Source: Promethearchaeota archaeon
GTDB lineage: Archaea > Asgardarchaeota > Lokiarchaeia > Sigyniarchaeales > Sigyniarchaeaceae
Direction: 5' to 3'
NCBI GenBank assembly: GCA_016932935.1
Contig: JAFGBX010000314.1
Coordinates: 1-21,275, forward strand
DNA length: 21,275 nucleotides
Below, piece by piece: positions 2,807 to 20,901 of the stretch. Each line of letters opens with the position of its first letter. Position 1 is the first letter of the stretch. Below the pieces are notes generated by a model. It was not told where the DNA came from. It saw nothing but the letters and a program-made list of their open reading frames with translations, and ran no database searches. Both the position numbers and the translations under genes were made by a program.

Positions 2807-2814
2807 CCGGTTCA

Positions 2815-3088: not shown

Positions 3089-3796
3089 ATGAGCGAAACC
3101 CGCAAGGTACGGATCACGTGCCCGTCGTGCAACAAGACCTTCGATGTCGGGCTACCGTTCACCCAGTTCAACGAATCACAGCTGGAGAAGGGGCTCGTCA
3201 CCGTCCTATTGAAGAACGAATGCGGCCACAAGTGCTTCGTTTTCATCGACAAGGATTTCAAGATGCGAGGCGGGCATTGTGCCGACTTCGATCTCGACAG
3301 CGAGGGCATCAACAGCTCGCCCGTCCAGAACCAGTACCAGGCCTCGGAGCTCTTGCTGAAGTATGCCGCCGAGATCATCAAGATGGACATTCAAGAAGAA
3401 CCGTTCATCAACGCGATCGGCGCCCAGAATAAGATAGACGCGATGGAGAACGCCCTGATCCGCGGGGACATCAAGAAAGCCGGGTCACTCATCGACAGCC
3501 TCCGGAAGTTCGCGTCCGAGATCGACGAGAAAGAATTCGCGAACAAGCTGCTCAAGAAGGTACAAAGCATCAACAAGCTCATCATCGAGAAGCCGAACCT
3601 CGATTGGAACACGTTCGTGCTCGATGATGGCGAGGCGAGGAGCGAGGCCGAGTATGCCTCCATGCACGTGATCCACTACGAGCGGCTGCGCAAGGTCGTC
3701 GCGGAGCTGGAATACGAGGCCATCGAGGGGCGGCTGCCGCGGGCCGCGGTCGAGGCGAAGCGGCAGCGGCTCATCGAGCTCATGGACGAGGCCTGA
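3089..3796 (+). CDS. Hypothetical protein: N-terminal Zn-ribbon (CPSC...CGHKC) followed by a long helical, charged C-terminal region
   Basis: ATG at 3089 (MSETRKVRITCPSCNKTF...). The upstream part of ORF 2867-3796 is R/G/A-rich and unprotein-like. An in-frame GTG at 3077 is an alternative start, 34 nt from the TATA-like ttataat at 3040-3046. TGA stop at 3794-3796. The next gene follows 6 nt later. Confidence 0.6.
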   Translation: MSETRKVRITCPSCNKTFDVGLPFTQFNESQLEKGLVTVLLKNECGHKCFVFIDKDFKMRGGHCADFDLDSEGINSSPVQNQYQASELLLKYAAEIIKMDIQEEPFINAIGAQNKIDAMENALIRGDIKKAGSLIDSLRKFASEIDEKEFANKLLKKVQSINKLIIEKPNLDWNTFVLDDGEARSEAEYASMHVIHYERLRKVVAELEYEAIEGRLPRAAVEAKRQRLIELMDEA

Positions 3797-3802
3797 CATG
3801 AT

Positions 3803-6413: not shown

Positions 6414-6436
6414 TGTGAATAGGTGGCGGTTGGACG

Positions 6437-6445
6437 TATATCTTT
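6437..6445 (-). promoter_or_regulatory. TATA-like box (aaagatata on the minus strand) for the GT-C-like gene, leaderless geometry
   Basis: This is the only AT-rich element in the 41-nt gap between the transporter stop (6455) and ATG 6413. It is centred about 28 nt upstream of the ATG. Confidence 0.4.
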
Positions 6446-6454
6446 CGTCGCGCC

Positions 6455-7990
6455 TTAGCTGTCCGCCAAGAACTTGGAGCGGCCGCTCCCGTCGAGCCGC
6501 TCCGAGCGCTTGTCGCCGTGGAGCCGTTCCAGCTTGGCTTTTATGGCCGGGTAGTTGTTGCGGTCGATGGGGAAGAAATGCCACGCGGCGACCCCGATCG
6601 CCGAGAGGATGGCGGGGATGAGGAACGTGGCGACCGCGACGCCGGTGATCGCCCTCCCAAAGTCGTCCCCCTCGACGACGAGGCCGTTGGTGAAGTCGAT
6701 GTCGTTCGCCGGCACGAGGGAGAAGGAGGCGAGGATGAACGGAACGGCAGCCAGGGCGAGGCTCGTCATCGGCTTCGACGCGATGCATCCAAGCCCCGAG
6801 TAGACGGCCTCCCTGCGCTCGCCCGTGATGGACTCGTCGTAGTCGACGACCATGGCGCGCGCAGGAGCGAGGTAGATCAAGAACGCCGGCATCCCCATGG
6901 CTCCCACGCTGAACCCAAGCGACACGAGCCACGCCCCCGGGGGCAAGGAGTAAGCCCCGACCATGGTGCCGTTCGGTACGTACGCGGCGGCGAAGGCGAT
7001 GGCGTACCCGACGCTCTGGATGGCGAGCGAGAACGTGATGGCCGCCTTGAGGTCGCGGTACCGGGGGATGTAAAGGATGATGACCGTGCCGGCCACGATG
7101 CCCCCCGCGGGGCCGAGGAGGAACGGCACGGCGTCCCAGAAGGTCGAGCCCGGGTTGGAATCGTTGAACCCGAAGATCCACGCGATGACGAACGCGAAGC
7201 CCGTCTGGACGAAGTACATGGCGCCCGTGGAGAGGCCCTCGTAGGCGATGAAGGCCTGGCCCGCCCGGTTGGCGAGCACGGTCCTGGCGGATTGCCTGAA
7301 GGAGGCCTGCGTCGGCGGGATGTATTCTTGTCGTTCCTTGACCCACCGGGTGAAGAAGGCCCACGGGACAAAGGAGACAGCACCGAACACGAGGACACAA
7401 ACCTGGAAGGCCGCCACCGATTCTGGGGACGGGTTGGACAGGAGCGCCATGGGCACGAGGCCCGCCGCGGCACCGGCGATCGACAATCCGGCCGACGCCA
7501 GCGCTATCTTCGTCCGTTCACGCCCGTCGATCGTGATCTGCGGGAACAAGGCGGTGCATGCCAAGTAGCATATCGTGAAGCAGGTGTCGTAGCAGAGCTG
7601 CGAGACGAGGTACCACACGAAGAGGGGGAACTGGTAGTCAACTCCGCCGGTCGACAGGCCCCAGCCCGCGGGCGGGAAGAACACGAGGACGAACGAGGCC
7701 GAGAACAGAGGGGCGCATACCTTGATCCACGGGATGTACCGCCCGCTCTTCGTGCGCGTGCGATCCATGAGCATGCCGAAGATCGGATCGTTGAGGACGT
7801 TCCACACCGCGTAGACCACTTGAGCCACGGCGATCCAGCTGGGATCCAGGCCCATCCATCCGTACCAGAACGCCTGGAGGAAGCCCAGCATCGACACGAA
7901 GATGCCGCCCGGCACGCTCGAGAGCGCGTACCCGACCGTCTCCTTCCACGACACGCGCTCAGCTGGACTTGTGTTCATCTGGCTGGTCAT
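6455..7990 (-). CDS. GPH-family (glycoside-pentoside-hexuronide:cation symporter, MelB-like) MFS transporter
   Basis: GPH signature NDPIFGMLMDRTRTKSGRYIPWI (D-P-x-x-G-x-x-x-D-R-T...G-R-x-x-P) after TM1, plus about 12 hydrophobic spans. Start chosen at ATG 7990 (MTSQMNTS...); the 39 upstream codons of the track ORF are P/R/A-rich. ATG 7978 is an alternative. Confidence 0.8.
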   Translation of the reverse strand: MTSQMNTSPAERVSWKETVGYALSSVPGGIFVSMLGFLQAFWYGWMGLDPSWIAVAQVVYAVWNVLNDPIFGMLMDRTRTKSGRYIPWIKVCAPLFSASFVLVFFPPAGWGLSTGGVDYQFPLFVWYLVSQLCYDTCFTICYLACTALFPQITIDGRERTKIALASAGLSIAGAAAGLVPMALLSNPSPESVAAFQVCVLVFGAVSFVPWAFFTRWVKERQEYIPPTQASFRQSARTVLANRAGQAFIAYEGLSTGAMYFVQTGFAFVIAWIFGFNDSNPGSTFWDAVPFLLGPAGGIVAGTVIILYIPRYRDLKAAITFSLAIQSVGYAIAFAAAYVPNGTMVGAYSLPPGAWLVSLGFSVGAMGMPAFLIYLAPARAMVVDYDESITGERREAVYSGLGCIASKPMTSLALAAVPFILASFSLVPANDIDFTNGLVVEGDDFGRAITGVAVATFLIPAILSAIGVAAWHFFPIDRNNYPAIKAKLERLHGDKRSERLDGSGRSKFLADS

Positions 7991-8103
7991 CACTCCGGCG
8001 GGGCGATCACTTGACTTAGGAGGCGGGAGGAGATAAGGGCGTCTGGCGGGGCGCTCAGCCCGCGCAGGGGGCTGTGCCCGCACGGGTGCCTCGGGCGGCC
8101 GGG

Positions 8104-9573
8104 TCATTTACGCCACGTGTAGATGCATTTCCTGACCTCGGCCTTGCCGTACGCCCCCATCTGCTGGCTGCTGTTTCCCTTCCCGACTGGCAGCGTGGAG
8201 ATGGACTCCGTCTGGAGGCCCGCCGCGATGGCGATGTCGGAGAGGATGATGTCAACGGGGATGACGATGCCCGCGAACCGGACGTTGTCGTTGACGTAGT
8301 AGGCCCTCCCTCCCGCCTTGAGGACGCGGGCTAGCTCGAAGATGACGAACGCGTGCTCGAAGAAGTAGTTCTTGATGAGCCGGTACACGTTCGGGTTGTT
8401 CAACCGGTTGGCATCCTTGAGCTTCTCGAAGTGGTCGTGGATGGCGGCGACGATCTCGTGGCCATCGTGCACGGCCTTGACCCTGGAGAAGAACGAAGCC
8501 CTCCCCTGGCCGGCGTAGAGGTCCTCGAGGTAGGCGACCTTCTCGCGGTTCTCCACCGTGCATGAGAGCAAGGACTGCCGCAGCCGCTTGAGCCCGGCAT
8601 CGTCGACACCCAGGTAGGCGAGCTCAAGCGGGTAGACCCGCGTGTAGTCGTACCGGTTCAAGTAGGGCGGGGACGAGATGACGAGGTCGATCGAGCCGTC
8701 GGGGACGGCGCTGAAGAGCTCGAAGGCGGTTCCCTGACGGAGGTCTACGCTGCCCCTCCGTTCCGTGGCTGGTCGGGCCTGCCCGGCGTTGATGTCCTCT
8801 GACATCACGTCGAGCTGGGCAGCCAGGGCTTCCTCGAAGGGGCGGATCCTGGTCTTCGAGTAAACGACGCGGGCCTTGCCGGATTGGGAGTCCCAGCGGA
8901 GGAATTGGCCACATTTCTCCGTGTAGCTCACTTTTTCCAGGATGGAAAGACCGGCGAGGTGTAGCACGTCGCGCAATCCCTTGTCGCCGATTCGGTTCTC
9001 CACGTGATGCCGGAACGCGCTTATCTTGCGCTCGACGCCCGGCGGGAACGCCATCTCGGAGATGCGGACGTGTTTGAAGGCGGTCTCGTCTTCGGCAGGC
9101 GAGGTCGAGAAGTCGGTGGCGTTGATCTCCCGCACCGCCTCGTCGAAGCTGGCCGGCTGGATCTGCTCGGCGGCGAGCCAGGCCCTGGCCACGAAGGGGC
9201 CTATGGGCAAGAGCTCGAAACCGACCGCGTCGAGGCCGCGTTCCCGCGCCGAGAAGAGGGTCGTGGCGATGCCTGCGAAGGGGTCGAGGACGGTTCCGGT
9301 ATCGATCCCCGATTCTTCGATCAGTCGATCGACGAGCTTGGTCGAGAACCCCTCCTGGTAGCGAAACCAGCGGTAGAACGGGGCATCCTTGTTAGCTTGA
9401 TAGCTTACCACATTGCGGCTGAGCTGCGGATCGACGCGGATCAGCGGCCGGTATCGCCGCTCCGCTCGCTCGAGTAACACGCCGAGGCCGCCTTTCTCCG
9501 CTGGCGCGCCCTGGCCGGGGGTCTTCGTCGAGGCCATGGGTTCGACCGACGCTCCTTCGGCTTGGTAATACAT
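8104..9573 (-). CDS. N6-adenine or N4-cytosine DNA methyltransferase (SPPY catalytic motif), solitary
   Basis: AdoMet motif I region is FRYQEGFSTKLVDRLIEESGIDTGTVLDPFAGIATT. About 190 aa later comes catalytic motif IV DLVISSPPY, then LKAGGRAYYVNDN. The order I...IV with a long spacer suggests an alpha-like permutation. ATG 9537 is an alternative start. Confidence 0.8.
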   Translation of the reverse strand: MYYQAEGASVEPMASTKTPGQGAPAEKGGLGVLLERAERRYRPLIRVDPQLSRNVVSYQANKDAPFYRWFRYQEGFSTKLVDRLIEESGIDTGTVLDPFAGIATTLFSARERGLDAVGFELLPIGPFVARAWLAAEQIQPASFDEAVREINATDFSTSPAEDETAFKHVRISEMAFPPGVERKISAFRHHVENRIGDKGLRDVLHLAGLSILEKVSYTEKCGQFLRWDSQSGKARVVYSKTRIRPFEEALAAQLDVMSEDINAGQARPATERRGSVDLRQGTAFELFSAVPDGSIDLVISSPPYLNRYDYTRVYPLELAYLGVDDAGLKRLRQSLLSCTVENREKVAYLEDLYAGQGRASFFSRVKAVHDGHEIVAAIHDHFEKLKDANRLNNPNVYRLIKNYFFEHAFVIFELARVLKAGGRAYYVNDNVRFAGIVIPVDIILSDIAIAAGLQTESISTLPVGKGNSSQQMGAYGKAEVRKCIYTWRK

Positions 9574-9750
9574 GTTATGCCATAAACTTAAACTGCGGTG
9601 ATGGAAATTCCTCGCTCGATGCCCCGCCGACCCGGATCCCGCCAGGGCGATAACCGATCGGTGCGCCCCGTGAGATTTCCGTCATCGTGGCATCCCCCGA
9701 TCTAAGCAGAATTAAGAACTCCCCGAACTAGTATATTTCTACAAGGGCAC

Positions 9751-10920
9751 TTGTGTAGAACAAGGCTTTTCACCGGCCGAAGGTGTGTCTGTATCAAATT
9801 GATTTTCACGCTTCCCGTGCATAACGAGGAGACGACGCTGGCTAGCACGGTGGCCATCGTACACGAGTACCTCATGGCCAAGTGTCCGATCGACTTCACC
9901 ATCTTGATCGCCGAGGACGGTTCCACGGACAGGACCAAGGACATCGCCCGCGACCTGCAGCGCCGCTTCTCGCACGTCGAGGTGATCACCGAGCCGAAGA
10001 CGCTCGGGCGTGGCCTGGCCCTCAGGCAGGCATGGGCCCAGTACTCGGACGGCGACTTCTATGCGTTCATCGACGCGGACATGGCCGTCCCGATCAAGTA
10101 CTTCTCCCGGCTCCTCCACGGCGTCCTGGAGGAGGGCTACGACTGCGTCATCGGTTCACGGTACGTGAAGGGGTCAGTCGTCGAGAGGCCACGCCTCCGG
10201 CAGATGGTCTCGAAGGCGTACAACTCGCTCCTCGGCTTCTTCTACGCGAGCGACGCGAAGGATCACCAATGCGGCTTCCGCATCTTCAGCAAGGCCATGA
10301 CCGGCGCCATCCTGCGGCATTGCACGTCCGACTCGTGGTTCCTTGACACCGAGTGCCTGGTCATGTTCCAGCGCCGGTTCAAGGTCAAGGAGATCCCGGT
10401 CGAGTGGAACGAGCACCGGACGCGGAAGACCGACCTCAGGCGCTTGTTCAAGGACTTCAAGCGGCACGGCGTCGGGCTGTTCAACCTGGGCAGGTACATG
10501 CTGCGCGTCGACCCGCTCTTCATGTTCGGTTCCGACCTCATGAAGAAACTGCTGAAGTTTTCCGTCGTCGGCTTTGGCAGCTTTGTATTCGTGCTCTTCT
10601 GGACGTTCATCTTCTCGCTCTTCACGAGCGACCAGGTGATCCTCGCAATTGTCAATTCAGTCGCGTTCTTCGTCGCCATGACGTTCCAGTTCAAGCTGAA
10701 CAAGAAATGGACGTTCCACGACAAGAGCAAGAAGGTGAAGAAGCAGTTCAGCTTCGACGTCACGCTCCGCCTCGTCGGTTGGGCGATCTACGAGCTGGTC
10801 TACCTCTTCCTCGCCAGCTTTGGTATGGGGTACATCTTTTCCACCATCGGCGGGGCGGCGGTCTCCGTCCTGTTCAACTTCGTCTGCAACCGCTACATCG
10901 TGTTCTCGAGGCGGATCTGA
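9751..10920 (+). CDS. GT2 glycosyltransferase (polyprenyl/dolichyl-phosphate sugar synthase-like) fused to a C-terminal GtrA-like 4-TM domain
   Basis: FTLPVHNEE, IAEDGSTDRT and FIDADM (DxD) are typical GT-A/GT2 motifs. The C-terminus (LLKFSVVGFGSFVFVLFW ... FNFVCNRYIVFSRR) matches the GtrA family pattern. There is no in-frame ATG near the 5' end. Candidate starts are TTG 9751 or TTG 9799, and TATA-like tatattt at 9732-9738 favours the downstream one. Confidence 0.8.
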   Translation: MCRTRLFTGRRCVCIKLIFTLPVHNEETTLASTVAIVHEYLMAKCPIDFTILIAEDGSTDRTKDIARDLQRRFSHVEVITEPKTLGRGLALRQAWAQYSDGDFYAFIDADMAVPIKYFSRLLHGVLEEGYDCVIGSRYVKGSVVERPRLRQMVSKAYNSLLGFFYASDAKDHQCGFRIFSKAMTGAILRHCTSDSWFLDTECLVMFQRRFKVKEIPVEWNEHRTRKTDLRRLFKDFKRHGVGLFNLGRYMLRVDPLFMFGSDLMKKLLKFSVVGFGSFVFVLFWTFIFSLFTSDQVILAIVNSVAFFVAMTFQFKLNKKWTFHDKSKKVKKQFSFDVTLRLVGWAIYELVYLFLASFGMGYIFSTIGGAAVSVLFNFVCNRYIVFSRRI

Positions 10921-10963
10921 CGGCAACGGGTTATCTCGACAGCGATGCGTCCTCCCAAGCCGC

Positions 10964-11701
10964 TCATTCCCTGGTGCCGACTGCATACGCGCTGACCCCG
11001 AACGGCGCGTTGAGCCCCGATCCGATGAGCTGGTTCTCCATCCGCAACACCCTGATCAAGAAGGCGTTGAGCCTCTGGTTGATTTCCAGGAGGTTGTCCT
11101 TCTTGGGTTCGTTCCGCCTCCAAAATGCTAGGGATTGTGCCACCTTCATGGCGACGGACGGGAGGAACATGGAGAAGTTCCAGTAGCCCGCTTGCAACAC
11201 CTTGAACCCGTTCCTGGCCAGCCTCGCCGCGAGCTCTCCCTTCCGGTACCGGCGCTGGTGGAGGTTGGCGTCGTCGTGAGCCGTCCACAAGAACGAGAAC
11301 GCCGGGACGAACGCCACTAGCTTGCCCCCCGGCCTGAGCACGCGGTGCCACTCGCCCAGCGCCGCGTCCTCGTCCTTGATGTGCTCGAGGACGTCGGAGG
11401 CGATGGCCACGTCGAAGGAGCCCGTGGCCTCCCCGATCCTCGTCGCGTCGCACACGTAGGTCGAGTCGATCCCTCGATCGTGGCACAAGCGCACCGCGAC
11501 CTCGCTGATGTCGAACCCCCTGACCGATCGGCAGCCCCTTCCCATAAAGTCACGCATCAGCGCGCCGCCCGAGCACCCGATGTCGAGCACCTTCTTGCGG
11601 CTGACGTCCCCCACGAGGTTCACGATGATGTCCCTCCTGGCAACGAACCAGTAGTATTTCTCCTCGAGCAGGTGGTACTTCCTCTCGAATTCCTTCTTCA
11701 T
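10964..11701 (-). CDS. Class I SAM-dependent methyltransferase (Methyltransf_11/23-like, of the type common in glycan clusters)
   Basis: Motif I VLDIGCSGGALM, acidic post-I residue in GFDIS, motif II DVAIASDVLEH, and LRPGGKLV. GGTGA lies 9 nt upstream of the ATG. Confidence 0.8.
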   Translation of the reverse strand: MKKEFERKYHLLEEKYYWFVARRDIIVNLVGDVSRKKVLDIGCSGGALMRDFMGRGCRSVRGFDISEVAVRLCHDRGIDSTYVCDATRIGEATGSFDVAIASDVLEHIKDEDAALGEWHRVLRPGGKLVAFVPAFSFLWTAHDDANLHQRRYRKGELAARLARNGFKVLQAGYWNFSMFLPSVAMKVAQSLAFWRRNEPKKDNLLEINQRLNAFLIRVLRMENQLIGSGLNAPFGVSAYAVGTRE

Positions 11702-11782
11702 GGGGCCGGTTCACCGACGTGCGTTCCGTGGTGGTTGGTTTCGTTTCGTTCCTTATCACCTTTCTCCTCGTCCCGGCCCAGG

Positions 11783-12976
11783 TCAGGGATGCCCCGCGGC
11801 GGCCGCTGGCAGCTCCTGGCCGGCGGTAGGGGCCAAGATGGGATCCGGGGGCGATGCCCGCAGCTTCTCGAGCATGTAGAGCGAGAGGAAGAAGACCGAG
11901 CTCAAGGGGATGACGAAGATCGTGCTGACGAGGGCCACCAGGACGAACTTCGCGCGCGCGTACCGTTTATTGTACTTGATCGCCCACGCCACGATGATGA
12001 AGTAGAAGATCCCGTGATGCTGTCCGTAGAACTCGGGCGAGACCAGCATGGTGACGAAGGCGCCGGCGATGTAGAAGTCCTGGCCGTCGAGGCACCGCTT
12101 CCTCCAGAGCACCACGAACGCCCCGTAGCCGACCGCCGCGACGACCACGAGGGCGGCGAGGGGCGATAAAGGGGCGTACAAGGCGAGGAACTTGGTGAGG
12201 CTTCCCGCGAACGCGATCGAGTTGTTGTAGTCGACGATCGCGCTCGTGTTGGCCCTGACGAGCGACGAGATCAGGTGGGGGTAGGCGAGGAGCATGGCGA
12301 CCGAGGGCACGAGGGGCAGCACCATGAAGAACAGCCGCCGGATCAGCTTCCCGATCTTGAACCTCCCTTGGAGGAGCACGATGGGGATCATGAAGATCGT
12401 GATGTGCTTGAACATGACCGAGAGGCCGAGGAAGAAGAACTGCAGCTTCTCGTTACCAACGAGCATCCCGTAGAACGACAGGACCACGCACAGGCCCGCG
12501 GCGACGTTAAACTGGCTGTAGACGTGGTCGGCGCCCTGGGCGGTCATGACCAGGCCCAACGACGCGAGGAGGAGCGCCATCGTCGCGTCGTGGCCCATGA
12601 GGCGGTAGTTCCTCCGGGCGACGACGAAGCTGGCCAGGCTCGTCGCGAGAACCGAGAGGCTGAACGCGAAGATCTTGGCGAGCAAGTCGCCCGGCAGGAA
12701 GTAGAAGGCCATGAGGAGGTACACGAGCTGCGGGGGGTTCTTGAACGGGCAGAGGACGTTGTCGTAGAGGCTGTTCGGGTCGTTGAGCCAGCTGTCCACT
12801 GCCGGCAGCCACGTCCACCGGAGATCCCCGTGAAGGGCCGGGTTGAAGAACAAGTGGTACACTATGGCGATGGTGATGAAGACAGCGTTGCACGCGATGG
12901 CGAGGACGAAGAGGCGGCGCGCGTTGCGCCCGGCAGCGTCGACGATCCGCTGTTGCCTTGTTGCCACGCGGTGCAC
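11783..12976 (-). CDS. Polytopic membrane protein, second GT-C/DUF2029-like glycosyltransferase candidate
   Basis: About 10 hydrophobic spans; FKNPPQLVYLLMAFYF resembles the DUF2029 YPP-type loop. The track ORF (to 13492) overlaps the actin gene out of frame and is R/P/S-rich there. There is no ATG, so the start is assigned to GTG 12976 (or GTG 12967), downstream of the actin stop. Confidence 0.6.
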   Translation of the reverse strand: MHRVATRQQRIVDAAGRNARRLFVLAIACNAVFITIAIVYHLFFNPALHGDLRWTWLPAVDSWLNDPNSLYDNVLCPFKNPPQLVYLLMAFYFLPGDLLAKIFAFSLSVLATSLASFVVARRNYRLMGHDATMALLLASLGLVMTAQGADHVYSQFNVAAGLCVVLSFYGMLVGNEKLQFFFLGLSVMFKHITIFMIPIVLLQGRFKIGKLIRRLFFMVLPLVPSVAMLLAYPHLISSLVRANTSAIVDYNNSIAFAGSLTKFLALYAPLSPLAALVVVAAVGYGAFVVLWRKRCLDGQDFYIAGAFVTMLVSPEFYGQHHGIFYFIIVAWAIKYNKRYARAKFVLVALVSTIFVIPLSSVFFLSLYMLEKLRASPPDPILAPTAGQELPAAAAGHP

Positions 12977-13064
12977 CTTTGTCGCAGCTCGGGATCCGGC
13001 TGCTGATCCAATGCGGCCTCCTTGCGATTTATCGTTTTTCCCCACGGCCGTTGCCCTGCCGTCG

Positions 13065-14204
13065 CTAGCCTCCGGGGATGCCGACCCGGTATCGCTGCAG
13101 GGCCGGGGATGAGAACAGCATGGAGCCCCCGATCCACGAGGAATACTGCCGGCTCTGGCCGCGCGGCTCTGGCGAGAGCACCTTGACGGGGGTCGTGGCG
13201 CGGCCTTGCAGCACCTTTTCCAGCCTCGTCCCGAGGCCAGGGAACAGGCTCGTGCCGCCCGCGAGCACGATGCTCCTCCACAAGGCCGGTCGTACGTCGC
13301 CCGGGCACCCGGCGATGGCGGCGCGTACCAGCGCGTCGATGGGTGGTGCCTGCTTCCCCGCGATGGCGGGATCGAAGAGCAACTCGGGTCCCATGAACCG
13401 GAGGCTGCCCACGGGCAGCTCGCGGCCGTCGGGCATCGCGTACCCTTGTTCCGCGGCTGATTCGGCGCCGGCGGCGGGATCCGCCGCGACATAGCACATC
13501 TGTTCCTTGATGTCCTCCGCGAGGATCAGGCCCTCCGGCGGCCACGGGCGTTCCCCCTCCGGGAGGCGCGTGAACGCGTGCTGGGCAATGTACTGCGTGA
13601 CGTCACGGCCACCCAGGGGAAAGAGCTGGATTGCGGGCCGGACCATGTCGCCATCGACCACGGGCACGACCCAGCCGGTCGTGTCCCCGAGGTCGACCAC
13701 GACGCCCGTCTCCATGCCGGACGCGCGCAACGCCAGCTCCGGCTGCGGGGCCATGTATATCTCCGAGGCGCGCACCTTGTCGCGCATGAACCTCGCCATC
13801 GCGTCGATGTCGCCTTGCTGGGCGGCGGGGGAGCACGTGATGAGGACGGGGCGACTGGCCGGGTCGACGCGCAAGCCGGCGATGAAGAAGTATCTCACGA
13901 CCTTGTCCATCACGTCCCAATCCTTCACGACGCCTCGCTCGCAGAGGTGCTGGATGTTGAGGAACGCCCGCTCCATCGTGATCTCGTACCCGACCGCGTA
14001 CCCGCGCTCGTAGATCTCGTAGTGGTGCCGTTCGACGTCGCTCGGAAACTCGGGCTCGTGCTTGAAATGCCCGACGGCCGCTGGGAGATCGGGGAGGCGC
14101 GGGTAGTCCTCCCCAGCGAAGCCTATCTTGATGGTCGTCGACCCGATGTCGATGACGACAGGCACGGGCTCCGAGTAGGGATCCCGTTGCTGCCCCGATG
14201 TCAC
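13065..14204 (-). CDS. Actin-family protein (eukaryotic actin/crenactin-like)
   Basis: Phosphate-1: VVIDIGSTTIKIGFAGEDYP (cf. actin CDNGSGxxKAGFAGDDAP). ERGVVKDWDVMDKVVRYFF..LRVDPASRPVLITCSP (cf. [38 protein letters not shown]). Phosphate-2: VVVDLGDTTGWVVPVVDG (cf. VxDSGDGVTHxVPIYEG). LGGRDVTQYI (cf. LAGRDLTDYL). Adenosine motif: IVLAGGTSLFPGLGTRLEK (cf. [20 protein letters not shown]). SSWIGGSMLFS (cf. SVWIGGSILAS). GTG 14204 lies 9 nt after AAGGAG (14220-14214); the ORF-maximal TTG at 14213 abuts the SD directly. Confidence 0.85.
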   Translation of the reverse strand: MTSGQQRDPYSEPVPVVIDIGSTTIKIGFAGEDYPRLPDLPAAVGHFKHEPEFPSDVERHHYEIYERGYAVGYEITMERAFLNIQHLCERGVVKDWDVMDKVVRYFFIAGLRVDPASRPVLITCSPAAQQGDIDAMARFMRDKVRASEIYMAPQPELALRASGMETGVVVDLGDTTGWVVPVVDGDMVRPAIQLFPLGGRDVTQYIAQHAFTRLPEGERPWPPEGLILAEDIKEQMCYVAADPAAGAESAAEQGYAMPDGRELPVGSLRFMGPELLFDPAIAGKQAPPIDALVRAAIAGCPGDVRPALWRSIVLAGGTSLFPGLGTRLEKVLQGRATTPVKVLSPEPRGQSRQYSSWIGGSMLFSSPALQRYRVGIPGG

Positions 14205-14294
14205 GAGCCGCAACTCCTTCGCAGATCGGTCTCAGATTTCAGGTCCATCACGGGCTCCTCGTGATCTGTCGTTTTTCACGAGTGGTAAAAAAAC

Positions 14295-14302
14295 ATATAT
14301 AA
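14295..14302 (+). promoter_or_regulatory. TATA box (atatataa) in the actin/serpin divergent intergenic region; may act in both directions
   Basis: It sits in an A-rich context (ggtaaaaaaacatatataacgg), ends 29 nt upstream of the serpin ATG 14332, and is near-palindromic. Confidence 0.45.
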
Positions 14303-14331
14303 CGGTCAGAAAATACAATCAACGGTTTTAT

Positions 14332-15633
14332 ATGAAACCGGGCAGACCGCGGCTAATGAGAGAAGCCTTGGTGTTTGTATACCTCGTGGCAATTTCAGTT
14401 ACAATTTCTGTTCCCTCCTTGATGATGACATTCGTGACCCAACCGGCACCAACCCATTCCCACTTTCCAGATGTTGAGCGTGTGGATGAAACAGAACATC
14501 GCCGGGCTGATGATTCGCTTGCGAACCTTGAAATGATGCAAGTCGTTGCGAATTCGAGCAATTTGTTCGGGATCGATCTCTTTCACGAGCTGTGGGACGG
14601 GGCATCGAACGTCATCTTCTCCCCGTGGAGCATCACTTCGGCAATGCTCGTGCTGCACGAAGGGGCGAGGGGCCAAACCCGGGAGGAAATCGCGAACGTG
14701 TTCCATGTTGGCAGCCTGGACGCTTGGCGCCCAAATTACGCGGGCATTTACAACCGGTTGAGTGACGCAACTGCGTGTAGGGTTAACACGGCCAATGCGT
14801 TCTGGCATGATTTGAGTAATACGCCTGCCGCGGAGTTTATCGAACCGATCAACAAGTATTATTGTGGCGAAGTTCGTGCCGTTGATTTCATGAACCACCC
14901 GGATACTGCATGCAACGATATCAATGAATGGGTTGCGTCCAAGACTGAGAACATGATCGATGGGCTCCTGGATCCAGCAAGTATCTCTCCTGAGACTCGT
15001 TTCACCATCACCAACGCTCTCTACTTTGCCGGGGCATGGGAAACTCAATTTGACCCGAAGAGAACGTACAATGCCACGTTCCACGGGATCGAAGGAAACG
15101 CGACTGTTCCCTTCATGCGACATTCTGGAGGTGCGCTCTTGAACTACATGAGGAACGACATCCTAGAGATGGTCGGAATACCATACGAGGGTAACCAGCT
15201 GGACTTGCTCGTCCTGATCCCGGAGGTAGGATTTGATGCATTCTTGCCAATTCTCTCACTAGATAACATTTATTCTTGGGAGACACAAATGACGGAAGAT
15301 GCATTAGACATCAGATTACCCTCCTTCTCCCTCGATGTAAAATCGGACCTGGCGGGAATTCTTTCCCAGATGGGAATGCCCGTAGCATTTCAACCGGGTG
15401 CTGCCGATCTCTCGGGCATAGATGGTACCCGTGGTGATTTTATCTCCAGCGTGATGCACGGTGCCGCGATCGTTGTGGACGAGGTGGGCACGAAGGCTGC
15501 AGCAGCGACGGCAGGTACAACGACGTGTTATTGCACGATCCCACAGATCGTTGTAGACCATCCATTCATCTTTCTCATCCAGGAACGAACGACCGGCTTG
15601 ATCTTGTTCCTCGGAACGGTCTTAAACGTATAG
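14332..15633 (+). CDS. Serpin (serine protease inhibitor) with an N-terminal signal/membrane anchor
   Basis: FSPWSITSAMLVLHEGARGQTREEI, INEWVASKTENMIDGLL and NALYFAGAWETQFDP. Hinge and reactive-centre loop: DEVGTKAAAATAGTTTCYCTIPQ. C-terminal signature: VVDHPFIFLIQERTTGLILFLGTVLNV. The N-terminal hydrophobic segment is ALVFVYLVAISVTISVPSLMMTFV. Third-codon positions are mixed, unlike the flanking genes. Confidence 0.9.
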   Translation: MKPGRPRLMREALVFVYLVAISVTISVPSLMMTFVTQPAPTHSHFPDVERVDETEHRRADDSLANLEMMQVVANSSNLFGIDLFHELWDGASNVIFSPWSITSAMLVLHEGARGQTREEIANVFHVGSLDAWRPNYAGIYNRLSDATACRVNTANAFWHDLSNTPAAEFIEPINKYYCGEVRAVDFMNHPDTACNDINEWVASKTENMIDGLLDPASISPETRFTITNALYFAGAWETQFDPKRTYNATFHGIEGNATVPFMRHSGGALLNYMRNDILEMVGIPYEGNQLDLLVLIPEVGFDAFLPILSLDNIYSWETQMTEDALDIRLPSFSLDVKSDLAGILSQMGMPVAFQPGAADLSGIDGTRGDFISSVMHGAAIVVDEVGTKAAAATAGTTTCYCTIPQIVVDHPFIFLIQERTTGLILFLGTVLNV

Positions 15634-15665
15634 AAGGTTGAGGAATTGAACCGTTCCGAAAGGCG

Positions 15666-16541
15666 ATGAATTCCATGGCGAGGATCCCAGGCGAGGGTCT
15701 CCCGGATGCCGAAGTCGCGGTGCTGGCCGCGATCGAGGAACTGCTCGGAACAACCATTCCCAAGGTGAAAACGATCGAACATGCCACCACCGGCTTTACA
15801 ACGGGTGACGGGCATGTCACGGGACTTGGCATCCATCACGGCACGTTTTCCACCTTGCCAGCCAGTATTGGAACCCTGACATCACTCACGGAGCTGGATT
15901 TAAGTGACAACACGTTTTCTTCCCTACCCGGAACGATCGGGCAGCTGGTGAACTTGAAAACGCTGAATTTATACAAGAACCATCTATCCTCCCTTCCAGA
16001 AACGATTGGAACCTTGGGAAAGCTCACCAGCCTCAGCATCACGTCGAATCACCTCGAGTGCTTGCCCGAGACGATAGGAAACCTCAAGACCCTGACGAAG
16101 CTCGGCTTGGGGTTCAACCGCTTGTCTTCCTTGCCTGAGACGATGGGAAACCTGGTGAGCGTGACCGAGCTCTTGCTCGTGCACAACCAACTGCGCTCCC
16201 TTCCGGAAACGATCGGGAACTTGCAAGCGCTGCAAACCCTCTGGTTGCATGGCAACAAGCTAGAATCCCTTCCCGACACGATGGGGAACCTCGTGAACTT
16301 GATAGAACTAGGCTTAGGCGCAAACCAGTTGTCTTCCCTGCCTGATACGATGGGCAGGCTTGAATCACTGAAAATGCTTCGACTCGGCGAAAACAAGTTG
16401 ACATCCCTTCCCGAGACGATGAGAAACTTGAAATCCCTCACGTCACTTGATCTCCGGTCAAACCAGTTGTCGTCCTTCATCGAAACGAACAAGCCCTGGA
16501 TCACGGATCTCGAATCACGAGGATGCACAGTCGTGCTGTGA
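15666..16541 (+). CDS. Leucine-rich repeat protein (about 10 x 23-aa repeats), no signal peptide
   Basis: Repeats have consensus LxxLxLxxNxLsSLPETiGNL. The N-terminal ~48 aa (EVAVLAAIEELLGTTIPKVKTIEHATTGF) form a non-repeat cap. Starts 32 nt after the serpin stop on the same strand. Confidence 0.9.
   Translation: MNSMARIPGEGLPDAEVAVLAAIEELLGTTIPKVKTIEHATTGFTTGDGHVTGLGIHHGTFSTLPASIGTLTSLTELDLSDNTFSSLPGTIGQLVNLKTLNLYKNHLSSLPETIGTLGKLTSLSITSNHLECLPETIGNLKTLTKLGLGFNRLSSLPETMGNLVSVTELLLVHNQLRSLPETIGNLQALQTLWLHGNKLESLPDTMGNLVNLIELGLGANQLSSLPDTMGRLESLKMLRLGENKLTSLPETMRNLKSLTSLDLRSNQLSSFIETNKPWITDLESRGCTVVL
15810..16499 (+). repeat. 69-bp periodic coding repeat (about 10 tandem LRR units)
   Basis: Recurrent ...tcccttcc(c/a)ga(g/a)acgat(g/t)gg(g/a)aac(c/t)t... 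every 69 nt. Units are diverged rather than near-identical. Confidence 0.85.
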
Positions 16542-16545
16542 GGGC

Positions 16546-16716
16546 GTGTTCCTTAAGCTTACCAGGCGAGATGGTGTATCCATCCAGCTCTTAACCATCA
16601 CCCATCTGGGGGAGGCCCGCCAGCTCGAGTCAAGGGTGAAGGGCCTCATCGCTAAAGGGCACGTCGAGAAAATCATACGAGATGGAAGGATTCTTTATAG
16701 AAAGAAGGCAACATAG
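16546..16716 (+). CDS. Possible small (56 aa) winged-helix-like protein
   Basis: GTG 16546 lies 4 nt after the LRR stop. LGEARQLESRVKGLIAKGHVEKIIRDGRILYRKK resembles a recognition helix plus wing hairpin of wHTH regulators. Short, non-ATG start, no clear RBS. Confidence 0.25.
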   Translation: MFLKLTRRDGVSIQLLTITHLGEARQLESRVKGLIAKGHVEKIIRDGRILYRKKAT

Positions 16717-17008
16717 AGGGATAAAGAGATACCGATACCGAGTTCTGATGGGTTCGGATGGTGCCAGCATACCTCTGACCGTTCCGCAGAACAGTTTGTT
16801 CGTTTCCGTGGCTTGAGTGACCACAGTACTTAAGACAACGGTAAGCTGCTTAATTTTCGGGTTCCAGCACCCAGCACGCTAATTGCGTGGAACTCGTCGG
16901 ACTCTCGCTCAAGGCGAGTTACTTAGTTGAATTCTGCAGCCTATTTAATCCTTGCAACCCGGCGGGCGAACGATTTTCCTCGATTTTCTCTCGTACTGGA
17001 TCGGTGAT

Positions 17009-17728
17009 TCACGGGTATCGTATCAGGTAGTTCACGTTCGACTTCGCATCCCGTTCGACGCGATACGGGAGGTCCTGCGATTTAATTATCGCCTCTACGA
17101 AATCTTTGAAGCTAGCAAACCCGATCAACGATTCATGGAAGCTAGGATCGAGCTTGAGCATCATGTTCTTGTGCTGCGGGATGTCCATGGCATCCCCTCT
17201 ATCTTCCCTGATGCGTATGACTTGCTTGAATAGATTGGTGGCAGCATTCATGTCCACATCGACCTTGCCGCCTGCGCCGAATATCTCGCAAGGGATGAAC
17301 TCGTCGCAGTTTTGTTGGATAATTGGCGCCGCCAACACCTTCGACGACAGCACGATCACGTACCGCCCGTGCTCCCGCAGTTTCCGAACGAGCGGGATGA
17401 AATCGCTGTCGCCCGATGCGATCGCGTACACGTCGATGTCCGGGTGCAGGAAGACTGCCTCGATAGCGTCCGTCGCGAGCTTGATGTCGGCGCCGTTCTT
17501 CCCGCTCGAGGCCAACGCTGGTTGGTCGATCAGCTCGAGCCCGTTCTCCACGAGCTCCTTTCGATACGCCTCGTACTTGCACCAGTCCCCGTACGCTCGC
17601 CGTATGCTCAGCACGCCATGTTCCGACAGTTTTTGGATTATCGGCCGGATCTTGAATCCTTTACCGAAGCTGTTGAAGAAGTTCTCGAAATCGACGAACA
17701 GCGCCAGCCGGCGGGAACCATCGACCAT
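17009..17728 (-). CDS. NYN-domain (LabA-like, PIN-fold) RNase fused to a C-terminal OST-HTH/LOTUS domain
   Basis: NYN motifs: LALFVDFENF, RAYGDW, GKNGADIKLATDAIE, DVYAIASGDSDFIPLVRKLREHGRYVIVL. C-terminal LDPSFHESLIGFASFKDFVEAII fits the OST-HTH pattern. ATG 17728 (MVDGS...); the track start GTG 17737 is an alternative. Confidence 0.8.
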   Translation of the reverse strand: MVDGSRRLALFVDFENFFNSFGKGFKIRPIIQKLSEHGVLSIRRAYGDWCKYEAYRKELVENGLELIDQPALASSGKNGADIKLATDAIEAVFLHPDIDVYAIASGDSDFIPLVRKLREHGRYVIVLSSKVLAAPIIQQNCDEFIPCEIFGAGGKVDVDMNAATNLFKQVIRIREDRGDAMDIPQHKNMMLKLDPSFHESLIGFASFKDFVEAIIKSQDLPYRVERDAKSNVNYLIRYP

Positions 17729-17790
17729 TTTACACACTTGTTTCTAGTGCGACACGGCGAGTTAAACGTGATCATAATCGCTCGTAGGCA

Positions 17791-17820
17791 ATGTTGTTAA
17801 TAGAGCCGGATTAATATCCT
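17791..17820. repeat. 30-nt intergenic motif, copy 1 (a[t/c]gttgttaa..8 nt..ggattaata)
   Basis: 22/30 identical to 18830-18859, including identical 8-mer and 9-mer blocks at the same spacing. Confidence 0.35.
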
Positions 17821-17828
17821 GCTCGGTG

Positions 17829-18041
17829 TTAACGAGCGATAATAAAAAAGATGTTTAGTTCCTCGTCATCCACGACGAGGAACCGGTGCCCCACGATGGG
17901 CACGACGTGCGGTATCTGCCTCGCCTCGACCTCCGCGGGCGTGACGCGGTACGATTCGTGGATCCAGGCGATCATCTCGTGTATCTTCGGCAGATCCGTC
18001 GGATAGGCGTAGTACCCTGAGCCCGATGCTCCCACAGACAT
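17829..18041 (-). pseudogene. Fragment of an SMI1/KNR4 (SUKH) gene, homologous to the middle of the 19249-19872 gene
   Basis: GYYAYPTDLPKIHEMIAWIHESYRVTPAEVEARQIPHVVPIVGHRFLVVD versus GYYAYPKDVPKMHEMIEWIHESCRVTPADVEARQIPHVVPIVGHRFLVVD. The N-terminal ~105 aa and C-terminal ~50 aa of the full protein are missing. Confidence 0.7.
17868..18017. repeat. Direct repeat copy A (150 bp) of the SUKH gene core
   Basis: Hand alignment to 19405-19554 gives 137/150 identical with no indels. A perfect 50-nt run spans 17881-17930 = 19418-19467. Homology stops abruptly at both ends. Confidence 0.9.
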
Positions 18042-18052
18042 GCATGAAAAGC

Positions 18053-18061
18053 AATAAATAT
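18053..18061 (+). promoter_or_regulatory. TATA-like box (aataaatat) upstream of vapB, leaderless geometry
   Basis: Centred about 26 nt upstream of ATG 18083, in an AT-rich patch. Confidence 0.4.
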
Positions 18062-18082
18062 GTGAACTTACATATTTGTGTC

Positions 18083-18385
18083 ATGGCCAACATCACCCTG
18101 AGCATCGACAACCGCATCCACGAGCGCATGAGGGCGTATCCCGAGATCAAGTGGACGGAGGTCGTGCGGAGGGCGATCCTCGATTACCTCGCCAAGCTCG
18201 ATGAGGCCGAGAGCATCCCTTCCACCGACTTGTGGAACCAGCTGGACGTGGAAACCCAGGCGCGTCTCAGATCCATGATGGATCACGTCGATCTCGACGA
18301 GGAACTCGTCGTCCAAGAACGGATGCACGCCCAGGAAAGCGAGCGATTGGATTCCCAACTGCGCGTCGAGCGTGGTCGCGAATGA
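18083..18385 (+). CDS. vapB: Antitoxin, ribbon-helix-helix (CopG/VapB-like)
   Basis: MANITLSIDNRIHERMRAYPEIKWTEVVRRAILDYL has a beta-strand/helix/helix pattern. The stop overlaps the PIN gene start (ATGA at 18382-18385). The acidic C-terminal tail is typical of a toxin-binding region. Confidence 0.7.
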   Translation: MANITLSIDNRIHERMRAYPEIKWTEVVRRAILDYLAKLDEAESIPSTDLWNQLDVETQARLRSMMDHVDLDEELVVQERMHAQESERLDSQLRVERGRE

Positions 18386-18795
18386 GCACGTGGTTACTCG
18401 ACACGAGCGCGGTGATCCGCTGGTTCAAGCAGTCGGGGAAGCGCATTTTCGACCACGGGTTCAACACCTCGATACTGACCGTGGTCGAGTTCCCCGTGCT
18501 CGCAGCATACCCGGGATTCAGCGTGCTCTATCCGACACCCGCCATCTACAAGAAAGCCGTTGCGTCTGCTTCCGCGCTGCGAAAAATCGGTTCGATCATC
18601 CCGGCGGTAGACCTGGTCATCGCCTCGACCGCGATCGAGAGAAACTTAACGTTGGTCTCCGACGATGACCACTTCATTGTCCTGGAGAAGGTCGAGCCGG
18701 GGCTGCATCATGTCTCCCTAGCCGCGTTCTTGCTGAAGATTGATCGTGGGGGTGGCGGTGCTGGTGCCGTGCCCCAGAAAGGCGGCAAGAGATGA
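18382..18795 (+). CDS. vapC: PIN-domain toxin (VapC-like ribonuclease)
   Basis: Conserved acidic residues in the expected order: LLDTS (Asp), VVEF (Glu), AVDLVIAS (Asp), SDDDHF (Asp). 4-nt overlap with the upstream antitoxin. Confidence 0.8.
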   Translation: MSTWLLDTSAVIRWFKQSGKRIFDHGFNTSILTVVEFPVLAAYPGFSVLYPTPAIYKKAVASASALRKIGSIIPAVDLVIASTAIERNLTLVSDDDHFIVLEKVEPGLHHVSLAAFLLKIDRGGGGAGAVPQKGGKR

Positions 18796-18829
18796 ATATG
18801 GATCGAACCTCTATGCGACTTATGAAGGA

Positions 18830-18859
18830 ACGTTGTTAAAAGGGTAGGATTAATAGACC
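18830..18859. repeat. 30-nt intergenic motif, copy 2
   Basis: See copy 1. Lies between the vapC stop and the Cys-rich ORF. Confidence 0.35.
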
Positions 18860-18905
18860 ATTTCTTTCTTGTCAGGCATGCTCTCTTGCCAAGGTGACAC
18901 AAGCC

Positions 18906-19232
18906 ATGATCGACACCCGGACGTCCCCCACCCCCGCCTTCGTCCCCGCCGACTACAAGGCCCGATTCAAGGTGCCGTGCGCCCCCGACGACGAGTTGAG
19001 CGACTCCCACCACCAGGAATGGTACGCCGGCACGGGCATTCGCCCCGCCGACCACCCGCTCGCCGGCCACATCTGGTTTTCCGGGTGCGGCGCTTGCGGC
19101 AGCGACGACGTGCTCGTGATCGCCGCGCAGTGGTGCGTGTCGTGGCACTCGGGCGACGCCTACTGGGACTACGAGATCGCGTGCAACGCGTGCGGCACGT
19201 TCACCCGGCGCTCGTTCTGCGAGAACGACTGA
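18906..19232 (+). CDS. Small Cys-rich protein with two CxxC pairs (Zn-ribbon-like), unknown function
   Basis: CGAC ... CNAC plus three further Cys. GC3-rich codons. GGTGA lies 8 nt upstream of ATG 18906; the track start GTG 18894 is an alternative. Confidence 0.5.
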   Translation: MIDTRTSPTPAFVPADYKARFKVPCAPDDELSDSHHQEWYAGTGIRPADHPLAGHIWFSGCGACGSDDVLVIAAQWCVSWHSGDAYWDYEIACNACGTFTRRSFCEND

Positions 19233-19248: not shown

Positions 19249-19872
19249 TCACTCCAGCCAGAAGGGCACCCGGAGGCCGCCCGGCAGCCCGGGTTCCCTG
19301 GCCCCGCCGTGGAAGATGTCGTGGACGAGGAACGACGTCAAGTCGGACGCGTAGAGGATGATGTCGTCGCCGTACATCGACAGGACGGGGTTCGACGCGC
19401 AGCGATCCACGACGAGAAACCGGTGCCCCACGATGGGCACGACGTGCGGTATCTGCCTCGCCTCGACGTCCGCGGGCGTGACGCGGCACGACTCGTGGAT
19501 CCATTCGATCATCTCGTGCATCTTCGGCACGTCCTTGGGGTAGGCATAGTACCCCGGCGCGTACCGCACCGGCTCGCCCGAGCGCCCGTAGATGTTGATG
19601 GCCTCCTTGTCGGTGCCGTTCATCGCCCGCAAGTAGAGCTTGTAGACGGGCGGGAACGCGAGGCCCATGTCCTCCTCAAACCTGGCGATCTCGTCGTCGG
19701 AGAGGCCGTCGTTCCACCTGGTTCCCGGCTGGACCTGGAAGCCGTAGACATCGTCCCGTAACACGGCGTCCTTCCAGCGCGCCTCGCTCTCCCGCTTGAG
19801 CCACGCGAAAAACCGTGCCGGGTCATTCGGGACACTTGTCTCTGGCTCGGTCGTCGGCATCGGGTTGATCAC
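19249..19872 (-). CDS. SMI1/KNR4-family (SUKH-1 superfamily) protein
   Basis: IARFEEDMGLAFPPVYKLYLRAMNG (the ligand/partner-binding N-terminal motif of SMI1/KNR4) and ...VPIVGHRFLVVD... GAGG lies 9 nt upstream of GTG 19872. Confidence 0.7.
   Translation of the reverse strand: MINPMPTTEPETSVPNDPARFFAWLKRESEARWKDAVLRDDVYGFQVQPGTRWNDGLSDDEIARFEEDMGLAFPPVYKLYLRAMNGTDKEAINIYGRSGEPVRYAPGYYAYPKDVPKMHEMIEWIHESCRVTPADVEARQIPHVVPIVGHRFLVVDRCASNPVLSMYGDDIILYASDLTSFLVHDIFHGGAREPGLPGGLRVPFWLE
19405..19554. repeat. Direct repeat copy B (150 bp), inside the intact SUKH gene
   Basis: See copy A: 137/150 identity, same orientation, 1537 bp apart. Confidence 0.9.
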
Positions 19873-20004: not shown

Positions 20005-20901
20005 ATGATGGTACAACCCATGAAGGACTACGAGATCGTCGCCGACTCCCCCGACTTGCTCGTCCTCGCCCAGAGGCGAACGCGAAACCTCTCCACCATT
20101 GCACCACCCGTGATCATCGGCGTGGCAGCATCCCTCGCCCTCATCTTCCACTTCCGCGTGGAACCATGGATCGCCATCGTGGTGCCCGCGGCAGCGACCA
20201 CCGCCGTGCTGCTCGTCGGCTTCTGGCTGTTCCAGGGAGTCAATGCCATCAAGGTCGACAAGGCGACCCATGCCGTCACGACCCTCGCCAGGAGGTGGCT
20301 GCCGCCCTTCGAGCGCGTCGAGTACCTCCTCCCGTTCGACGAGATCCTCCACGCGGGCCTCTACCCCTATGCCGACGTGCACGACCAGAGCACCATGCTC
20401 GGCATGGAGACCAAGGAGGGCATCGTCAAGCTCCTCCCCAAGGCTGGCGAGGCCGAGGGGCAGCTCCTGGCCAAGATCGTGACGATCGCCGACCACCTGG
20501 CGACCGCCGACCCGAAGGCGAGCCAGCAGGGGCGGGAGCCCGGCCACGTCGTCACCGCGGTCGAGTACGCGCCTTCCACCGTGGCCACGGGATCCGAGCG
20601 GGGGTCAGCCGGGTTCGGCGACGCGCGCCAGGGCCTGCTGGACGGCGTCGACCGGCTGGTCGCGTCGCTGCGCGAGGACGGATCCGCCCGCGGCGAGGGC
20701 CGGGTGCCGGCGAGGCAAGACATACTGGAAATTCTCCGCTCGGTGGAGCGGAAGATCCTCGCCCTCGGCATGAAGGTCTCAGGCTTTGCCATGGCCGCGC
20801 AGGCGGGATTTTTCCACGCCTTCGTGGCACTCGGCTCGGGGAGCAGAAAGCACGTCCAGGGCGTCCTCTCCCGCGCCAGGTACAACTTGCTGCGCGCGTG
20901 A
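20005..20901 (+). CDS. Hypothetical membrane protein (2 N-terminal TM segments, soluble C-terminal region)
   Basis: GC3-rich frame with normal amino-acid composition. TM candidates are LSTIAPPVIIGVAASLALIFHF and IAIVVPAAATTAVLLVGFWLF. The overlapping 349-aa ORF (19902-20951) is R/P/G-rich and judged a shadow. Confidence 0.55.
   Translation: MMVQPMKDYEIVADSPDLLVLAQRRTRNLSTIAPPVIIGVAASLALIFHFRVEPWIAIVVPAAATTAVLLVGFWLFQGVNAIKVDKATHAVTTLARRWLPPFERVEYLLPFDEILHAGLYPYADVHDQSTMLGMETKEGIVKLLPKAGEAEGQLLAKIVTIADHLATADPKASQQGREPGHVVTAVEYAPSTVATGSERGSAGFGDARQGLLDGVDRLVASLREDGSARGEGRVPARQDILEILRSVERKILALGMKVSGFAMAAQAGFFHAFVALGSGSRKHVQGVLSRARYNLLRA

Follow-up and report, generated by a model that had tools for sequence, protein, structure and literature searches.

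The 21,275-nt contig JAFGBX010000314.1 (the window) comes from a high-GC archaeon labelled Lokiarchaeota at NCBI. Beside an actin gene it carries a block of about 4.6 kb (positions 14214-18893) with genes for a serpin, a leucine-rich repeat (LRR) protein and an RNase that combines an NYN domain with a LOTUS domain. This block is probably an ordinary patch of flexible genome in an organism whose G+C content at third codon positions (GC3) is mosaic, and not the result of one recent transfer of a three-gene system. What was observed directly is the composition of the block, its domain content, the orthology of the NYN gene and the selection acting on it, and a lack of recurrent adjacency among 170 loci. 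The patch of accessory genes would lie beyond a conserved M20-MFS-methyltransferase block, after which a stretch prone to rearrangement begins. The genes of the patch would be independent cargo, consisting of the serpin (with the LRR protein), the stand-alone NYN-LOTUS RNase, a dead fragment of an SMI1/KNR4 (SUKH) gene and a VapBC toxin-antitoxin pair, with lower GC3 as the sole trait that they share.

G+C, GC3 and tetranucleotide usage are all shifted over 14214-18893 when compared with the rest of this one 21,275-nt contig. Mean G+C in non-overlapping 300-nt windows is 0.534 in the block and 0.627 elsewhere (Mann-Whitney p = 2.7e-8). In 500-nt windows, G+C is 0.50-0.55 across 14001-17250 and remains at or below 0.58 up to approximately 18750, whereas the flanks reach 0.62-0.71. 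The genes inside the block have GC3 values of 0.59-0.80 and the flank genes 0.85-0.94 (Table 1; further flank values are GT87 0.94, MFS 0.88 and M20 0.88). G+C at first and second codon positions is similar for block and flank genes, and the difference in G+C between block and flanks is almost entirely synonymous. The shift is more than a base-composition effect because tetranucleotide usage corrected for base composition also deviates, with the lowest correlation to the rest of the contig found at 14001-18680 (0.774 versus ∼0.88-0.92) and an L1 distance of 0.35 there versus 0.14-0.17 in other parts. Both edges of the block are AT-rich intergenic regions. The left one includes a TATA-like sequence, TATATAA at 14296-14302, some 30 nt ahead of the serpin ATG, which by eye is a candidate promoter element.

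An earlier note on this DNA had placed a lower-GC island at 14230-17830 and described it as an acquired or differently evolving segment in which no integrase, tRNA or flanking direct repeat was visible. The sliding-window and tetranucleotide analysis of this contig bears out the dip, which is real, but moves the right edge from 17830 to ∼18796-18893. Likewise, a tRNA scan found none, and there was no match to an integrase or transposase in Pfam, PHROGs, PADLOC or NCBIfam among the island proteins scanned. However, a 150-nt direct repeat is present, though it surrounds VapBC and not the whole island. An Rfam scan of the window returned no family. A provirus origin was considered and rejected, as searches of PHROGs and viral contigs gave no more than LRR and NYN families of a generic kind, together with four NYN matches to distant viral proteins (23-37% identity).

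The age of the NYN gene can be judged from Logan contigs of a related organism obtained from independent samples (L003-L006, DRR4385xx). These contigs share an h244-M20-MFS-methyltransferase block with the window at 76% nucleotide identity, with amino acid identities of 66% (h244), 81% (M20), 72% (MFS) and 77% (methyltransferase). An NYN orthologue with ∼80% identity is located approximately 2 kb beyond the methyltransferase gene, after one PMT_2-like glycosyltransferase gene, and is oriented opposite to its counterpart in the window. The nonsynonymous divergence (dN) of the NYN gene is 0.12-0.14 and that of the neighbouring genes 0.13-0.22. The ratio of nonsynonymous to synonymous divergence for the NYN gene is 0.06-0.08, and the gene is under strong purifying selection. 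The position of the orthologues near the same block and a dN like that of the neighbours make it probable that the gene has been inherited vertically, and that it is functional and has long been present in the lineage while not drifting to host composition. The part of the earlier description that called the block differently evolving therefore stands, but recent acquisition of the block as a whole does not agree with the NYN orthologues in relatives and their dN.

Low GC3 is also seen at other loci of these families. The NYN orthologue has a GC3 of 0.62 in L003 and L006, where flank genes are at 0.79-0.89, and of 0.72 in L008, where the neighbours are at 0.40-0.61. In L007 (GCA_040960625.1), a 58%-identical NYN-LOTUS homologue of 386 aa is located at the edge of a ∼10-kb defence island (positions 1-11161) that includes genes for an MmeI-type enzyme, TIR, TPR and AAA/nSTAND3 proteins and McrBC. 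GC3 in that island is 0.40-0.54, versus 0.88 in the adjoining host genes. A 49%-identical serpin homologue (L012, 4627-5784) has a GC3 of 0.64 among neighbours at 0.74-0.92. As the same mosaic recurs at these other NYN and serpin loci, low GC3 is a lasting feature of the accessory genes of these genomes and not a time stamp. It thus appears that this high-GC archaeal group has a strongly mosaic GC3 in which accessory genes stay low over long periods, and low G+C alone is therefore a poor clock for recent transfer. Accessory genes would escape whatever drives core genes to ∼0.9 GC3, and AT-richer donors, low expression or less recombination-linked GC bias may be the cause.

The NYN gene predicts a protein with an NYN domain at residues 10-149 (nt 17291-17710), in which D16, D84, D90, D110 and D112 are invariant in the NYN alignment, and the acidic active site is predicted to be intact. 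A LOTUS-like winged helix occupies approximately residues 163-240 (nt 17018-17251). Although the C-terminal part alone scores 17.6 bits for LOTUS/OST-HTH (E = 0.0036), against a Pfam cutoff of 23.8, a divergent LOTUS domain is probably present. The C-terminal part is collinear with the LOTUS domain of a Methanofollis homologue (P0007) that is above threshold at 34 bits. The predicted structural model (pLDDT, the predicted local distance difference test score, of 84) has a helix-helix-short helix-helix-strand-strand topology there, consistent with a winged helix into which a further helix is inserted. A profile of the family also matches the reference LOTUS structure 2kpm (E = 0.012) and, in addition, 2kzv (E ∼0.01). 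The gene call made earlier, NYN plus LOTUS, is thus essentially right.

The further description of this combination as eukaryote-type and like that of MARF1 is not upheld. By fold, the NYN domain matches both 2qip (Foldseek E = 3.8e-10) and the NYN domain of the eukaryotic counterpart MARF1/Limkain b1 (E = 7e-8), with target-normalised TM-scores (template modelling scores) of 0.78-0.84. By sequence profile, the bacterial LK-nuclease 2qip (E = 4.7e-16) is a closer match to the family than MARF1 is (E = 0.014), and there was no eukaryotic-named match among the NYN sequence homologues. Unlike MARF1, which has RRM domains and multiple LOTUS repeats, the protein has a single LOTUS-like domain and no RRM domain detected by Pfam. 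The bacterial-type LK-nuclease (NYN/DUF88)+OST-HTH proteins likewise begin with an NYN domain that has conserved acidic residues, continue with one LOTUS-like winged helix, and are encoded by stand-alone genes with no conserved neighbours. On sequence grounds the protein belongs with this prokaryotic family, which is abundant: among GTDB species representatives, at least 578 loci encode a relative. It is shorter than its closest archaeal homologues, which are ∼360 aa and have an extra C-terminal domain. Bacterial genes of this family have no conserved neighbourhoods and were proposed to encode a stand-alone RNase, and archaeal versions were called very rare (Anantharaman, Zhang and Aravind 2010, PMC2848206). 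In contrast to that picture, several related archaeal lineages here share the gene, which represents a conserved family under purifying selection.

The serpin call is also borne out, with a full-length match to PF00079 (profile positions 2-369 of 370). The N-terminus is hydrophobic over approximately residues 13-31 (Kyte-Doolittle 19-residue maximum of 2.2 at residue 13) and is predicted to be a membrane anchor or signal. The reactive-centre loop corresponds to residues 384-404 (nt 15481-15543) and starts at E384 with the hinge EVGTKAAAATAG, which has small residues at P15-P9, aligns with the PAI-2 hinge and is invariant among the closest homologues (alignment A3). A hinge of this kind allows loop insertion, and the serpin is predicted to be of the inhibitory type. 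Tyr400 aligns opposite an Arg of PAI-2 that we take to be its P1 residue, and Tyr400 and the following Cys are the predicted P1 and P1' residues. The best matches are 48-50% identical, one of them named Sigynarchaeota, and the next named matches are from Methanocellales and Euryarchaeota (39% identity).

Known prokaryotic inhibitory serpins include aeropin, Tk-serpin, thermopin and miropin. The serpin in the window resembles these in its full serpin fold, inhibitory-type hinge, N-terminal export or anchor signal and archaeal closest relatives. It differs in having no match above 50% identity in the databases searched, in the predicted Tyr-Cys pair at P1 and P1', and in that no cognate protease gene is adjacent. 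Whether membrane-anchored or secreted, the protein probably acts extracellularly by trapping serine proteases of the chymotrypsin or subtilisin type. Literature searches on Asgard serpins, and on Asgard NYN proteins with defence systems, found nothing relevant. The G+C of this serpin subfamily stays at approximately 0.52-0.55 irrespective of host context.

The LRR gene starts 32 nt downstream of the serpin gene on the same strand, and because of this short gap the two are possibly co-transcribed as a bicistron. The predicted product, confirmed as an LRR protein by matches to LRR_8 and LRR_14, has a non-repeat N-terminus of ∼60 aa followed by approximately nine 23-residue repeats, which are reflected in a 69-nt repeat period (family D1) at 15909-16488. 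With no hydrophobic segment (Kyte-Doolittle maximum 1.08), it would be a cytoplasmic scaffold protein. The repeats follow an LxxLxxLxLxxNxLxxLPxxIGxL-like consensus as in Shoc2/PIRL-type proteins, but Roc-COR, TIR, kinase or other effector domains are not attached. Matches to Promethearchaeota, cyanobacterial and plant PIRL/Shoc2-like proteins are about equally good (38-52% identity) and so reflect repeat class, not ancestry. The homologue search was swamped by repeat similarity to the extent that the query's own entry was absent among the 120 matches listed, and no orthologue was recognisable among them. Orthology to any eukaryotic LRR protein is not establishable from the repeats.

Neighbourhoods were surveyed at 80 GTDB NYN-LOTUS loci, 80 metagenome serpin loci and 10 loci of the closest homologues, and no pairwise adjacency, serpin-LRR included, recurred at any of the 170. 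Neither a serpin nor an LRR gene is found beside the NYN gene at any of the 80 GTDB loci (up to 10 kb of flank on each side, within 1.34 Mb), and neither an LRR nor an NYN gene is found beside the serpin homologue at any of the 80 metagenome loci (0.51 Mb). Neighbours are unrelated at the closest NYN homologue loci (L003-L008 and L178; no serpin or LRR gene), at the closest serpin homologue loci (L009-L012; no LRR or NYN gene) and at a close LRR homologue locus (L179; no serpin or NYN gene). In the window itself, the NYN and LRR genes are convergent, with 467 nt between them. A hydrophobic N-terminal anchor segment is present in the serpin and missing from the LRR protein, so that the serpin probably has its site of action beyond the cytoplasm; for the NYN RNase, a cytoplasmic location is presumed.

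These results bear directly on the module that the earlier note had proposed, composed of a sensor LRR protein, a protease inhibitor and an RNase effector. As a defence or stress system, the LRR protein would sense an invader, the serpin would control a protease, and the effector would be the NYN-LOTUS RNase, possibly together with VapC. The genes are physically close, serpin and LRR may form an operon, VapBC is adjacent, the NYN homologue in L007 adjoins a TIR/McrBC/MmeI defence island, and the NYN gene weakly matches the PADLOC model for a LabA-like NYN nuclease (PDLC01154, E = 6.8e-6). However, that match is the exception, as no PADLOC model is matched by the serpin, LRR, VapB, VapC or SUKH proteins. 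The adjacency found at none of the 170 loci, the opposite strand of the NYN gene, the different predicted compartments and the reported lack of conserved neighbourhoods for LK-nuclease+OST-HTH genes (PMC2848206) together make such a module very unlikely. The earlier note had itself held that unrelated neighbourhoods elsewhere would count against it, and unrelated neighbourhoods are what was found. Eukaryote-sounding domains (serpin, LRR, NYN-LOTUS) beside actin in an Asgard-type genome tempt a eukaryote-like reading, which is misplaced here because the three named genes are not neighbours at any other locus surveyed and have prokaryotic nearest relatives, mostly archaeal where the source names them.

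The patch resembles prokaryotic flexible-genome, genomic and defence islands in having a lower G+C than the core, sharp AT-rich borders, a location that varies between relatives, and mixed conflict- or surface-related cargo with a toxin-antitoxin pair and a gene remnant. A single, fairly recent horizontal island, in which the whole 4.6 kb came from a lower-GC donor and has not yet reached host composition, would account for the lowered G+C and GC3 and the sharp edges, for a serpin that has no homologue above 50% identity in the databases and none on the relatives' contigs, and for the toxin-antitoxin pair and remnant, which are typical island debris. This is nevertheless improbable. Unlike genomic islands, the block has no integrase, transposase, tRNA target or flanking att repeats that could be found, and at least one cargo gene, NYN-LOTUS, is probably old and vertically inherited, being present in three related lineages with the protein divergence of adjacent core genes and low GC3 in all. 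GC3 inside the block is uneven, and the serpin and NYN genes differ in the source of their closest relatives. The block also gives no more than weak matches to catalogued defence proteins.

The abrupt change in composition could also arise if a low-GC block of another organism had been wrongly joined to the actin contig during assembly or binning. Logan contigs assembled independently from run SRR13394437 are 100% identical to the window over 14156-17910 (L001), 2513-7655 (L002) and 17901-19059 (L177), and they break near the ends of the serpin-LRR-NYN segment (14156 and 17910), with one break in a repeat. The identical 50-nt core of that repeat accounts for the break at 17901-17910. L001 crosses the left junction with 58 nt of the actin coding sequence and the intergenic region at 100% identity, and L177 runs across the right junction and ends within orf112. 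The contig is unlikely to be chimeric, because these two contigs span the junctions and, in relatives from independent samples, an NYN gene of low GC likewise shares a contig with the syntenic block of high GC; overall, an artefact is extremely improbable.

Some points weigh against the interpretation of the block as a flexible-genome patch with independent cargo. Four contig families of relatives are the basis for speaking of a flexible genome. No serpin or LRR orthologue was recognised on the relatives' contigs, but as these end 149-255 nt past the NYN gene, absence is unproven and both genes could lie further along. Non-recurrence is weaker evidence for the LRR gene because repeats make all such proteins alike and orthologues unrecognisable, and with a 32-nt gap on one strand the serpin and LRR genes are a possible lineage-specific two-gene functional unit. 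In addition, no mobility gene that would explain the arrival of the cargo was found among the island proteins scanned. A reading in which the NYN-LOTUS protein is a long-lived, lineage-conserved stand-alone RNase that stays in AT-richer flexible or defence regions and acts on foreign or selfish RNA, with serpin-LRR as a separate lineage-specific unit, is unlikely. One locus (L007) hints at a possible conflict-related function of the protein. MARF1 restrains retrotransposon RNA in eukaryotes, and if the NYN-LOTUS protein did act on foreign or selfish RNA it would be a prokaryotic functional counterpart.

Table 1. Features in and around the lower-GC block. Positions refer to the window; GC3 is given for genes and G+C for intergenic regions.
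Feature	Position	Strand	Length	GC3 or G+C	Remarks
Actin gene	13065-14213	-		GC3 0.88	Left flank, host-like, not part of the island; PF00022, 238 bits
Left-edge intergenic region	14214-14331			G+C 0.42	AT-rich, divergent
Serpin gene	14332-15633	+	433 aa (NCBI model 425 aa)	GC3 0.59	PF00079, 290 bits
LRR gene	15666-16541	+	291 aa	GC3 0.69	LRR_14, LRR_8, LRR_4 (Pfam)
Spacer between convergent LRR and NYN genes	16542-17008		467 nt	G+C 0.51	No recognisable feature
NYN (LK-nuclease) + LOTUS/OST-HTH RNase gene	17009-17737	-	239-242 aa	GC3 0.75	PF01936, 103 bits
SUKH-gene remnant (middle part)	17868-18017	-	150 nt	GC3 0.75	Repeat copy A, repeat family D2
Palindrome AAATATGTGAACTTACATATTT	18056-18077		22 nt		Just upstream of vapB ATG; candidate operator or promoter
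vapB, VapB-like ribbon-helix-helix antitoxin (predicted)	18083-18385	+	100 aa	GC3 0.80	NCBIfam VapB, E = 1.6e-4
vapC, PIN-domain toxin (predicted)	18382-18795	+	137 aa	GC3 0.76	PF01850, 29.6 bits (cutoff 23.6); NCBIfam VapC, E = 7.5e-7
Right-edge intergenic region	18796-18893			G+C 0.41	AT-rich
orf112	18894-19232	+		GC3 0.93	Right flank, host-like
Full SMI1/KNR4 (SUKH) gene	19249-19872	-		GC3 0.92	Right flank; repeat copy B at 19405-19554; PF09346, E = 3.6e-5, just below Pfam cutoff

The SUKH remnant in the block is a dead fragment of the neighbouring SUKH gene. It and its counterpart within the full gene are direct repeats with 91% identity (13 mismatches), including an identical 50-nt core at 17881-17930 in copy A. 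Similarity is lost abruptly on both sides of copy A, which has AT-rich DNA around it and is located between vapB and the NYN gene. The two copies bracket a 1.5-kb unit composed of VapBC, orf112 and the 3′-end of the SUKH gene, which may be a recombination or duplication scar. An interpretation of the repeats as att sites of an integrated element was rejected because the bracketed unit has no integrase and includes the host-like orf112.

The vapB and vapC genes, which the earlier note did not mention, are predicted to form a type II toxin-antitoxin pair. The order of a ribbon-helix-helix antitoxin gene followed by a PIN toxin gene, the 4-nt overlap (ATGA) of the vapC start with the vapB stop, and the upstream palindrome, which could act as an operator or promoter, are as in VapBC type II systems, although both proteins score under the NCBIfam equivalog cutoffs. 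PF26688 (RHH_12) is annotated in precomputed data on an identical Logan copy of vapB. Neither orf112 nor orf89, which lies in the spacer between the LRR and NYN genes, matched a family in Pfam, PADLOC, NCBIfam or PHROGs.

The top solved-structure match of the actin is 9wc4, 'HC1 actin' (221 bits), slightly ahead of yeast actin (198 bits), with yeast and animal actins at ∼190-198 bits. No relatives were retrieved from genome or metagenome collections with single-protein patterns. A search for an identical actin protein gave no record either, probably owing to a different choice of start codon. The location of the block beside the actin gene appears to have no significance. L001 stops 58 nt inside the actin 5′-end, at 14156, where no repeat in the window accounts for the break; possible causes are a paralogue of the actin gene or variation between strains elsewhere in the sample.

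The conserved methyltransferase gene (8104-9573, - strand) predicts a type II N6/N4 DNA methyltransferase (PADLOC MTase_II, 390 bits) with 77% identity to the relative's copy. No restriction enzyme is evident alongside, and it may be an orphan methyltransferase. Between this gene and the NYN gene, 9751-13000 of the window includes GT2/GtrA, SAM methyltransferase and GT87 genes, then actin, and the corresponding interval in the relative contains just the PMT_2-like glycosyltransferase gene (L003, 8116-9174; L006, 479-1684). The interval looks like a variable glycosylation locus. Four open reading frames of host-like GC3 have no Pfam family: 47-2806 (919 aa), 2867-3796 (309 aa), 5202-6380 (392 aa) and 20005-20901 (298 aa, + strand, GC3 0.89). 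The syntenic block of the relative has an orthologue of the 309-aa frame, and the 392-aa frame was not found there.

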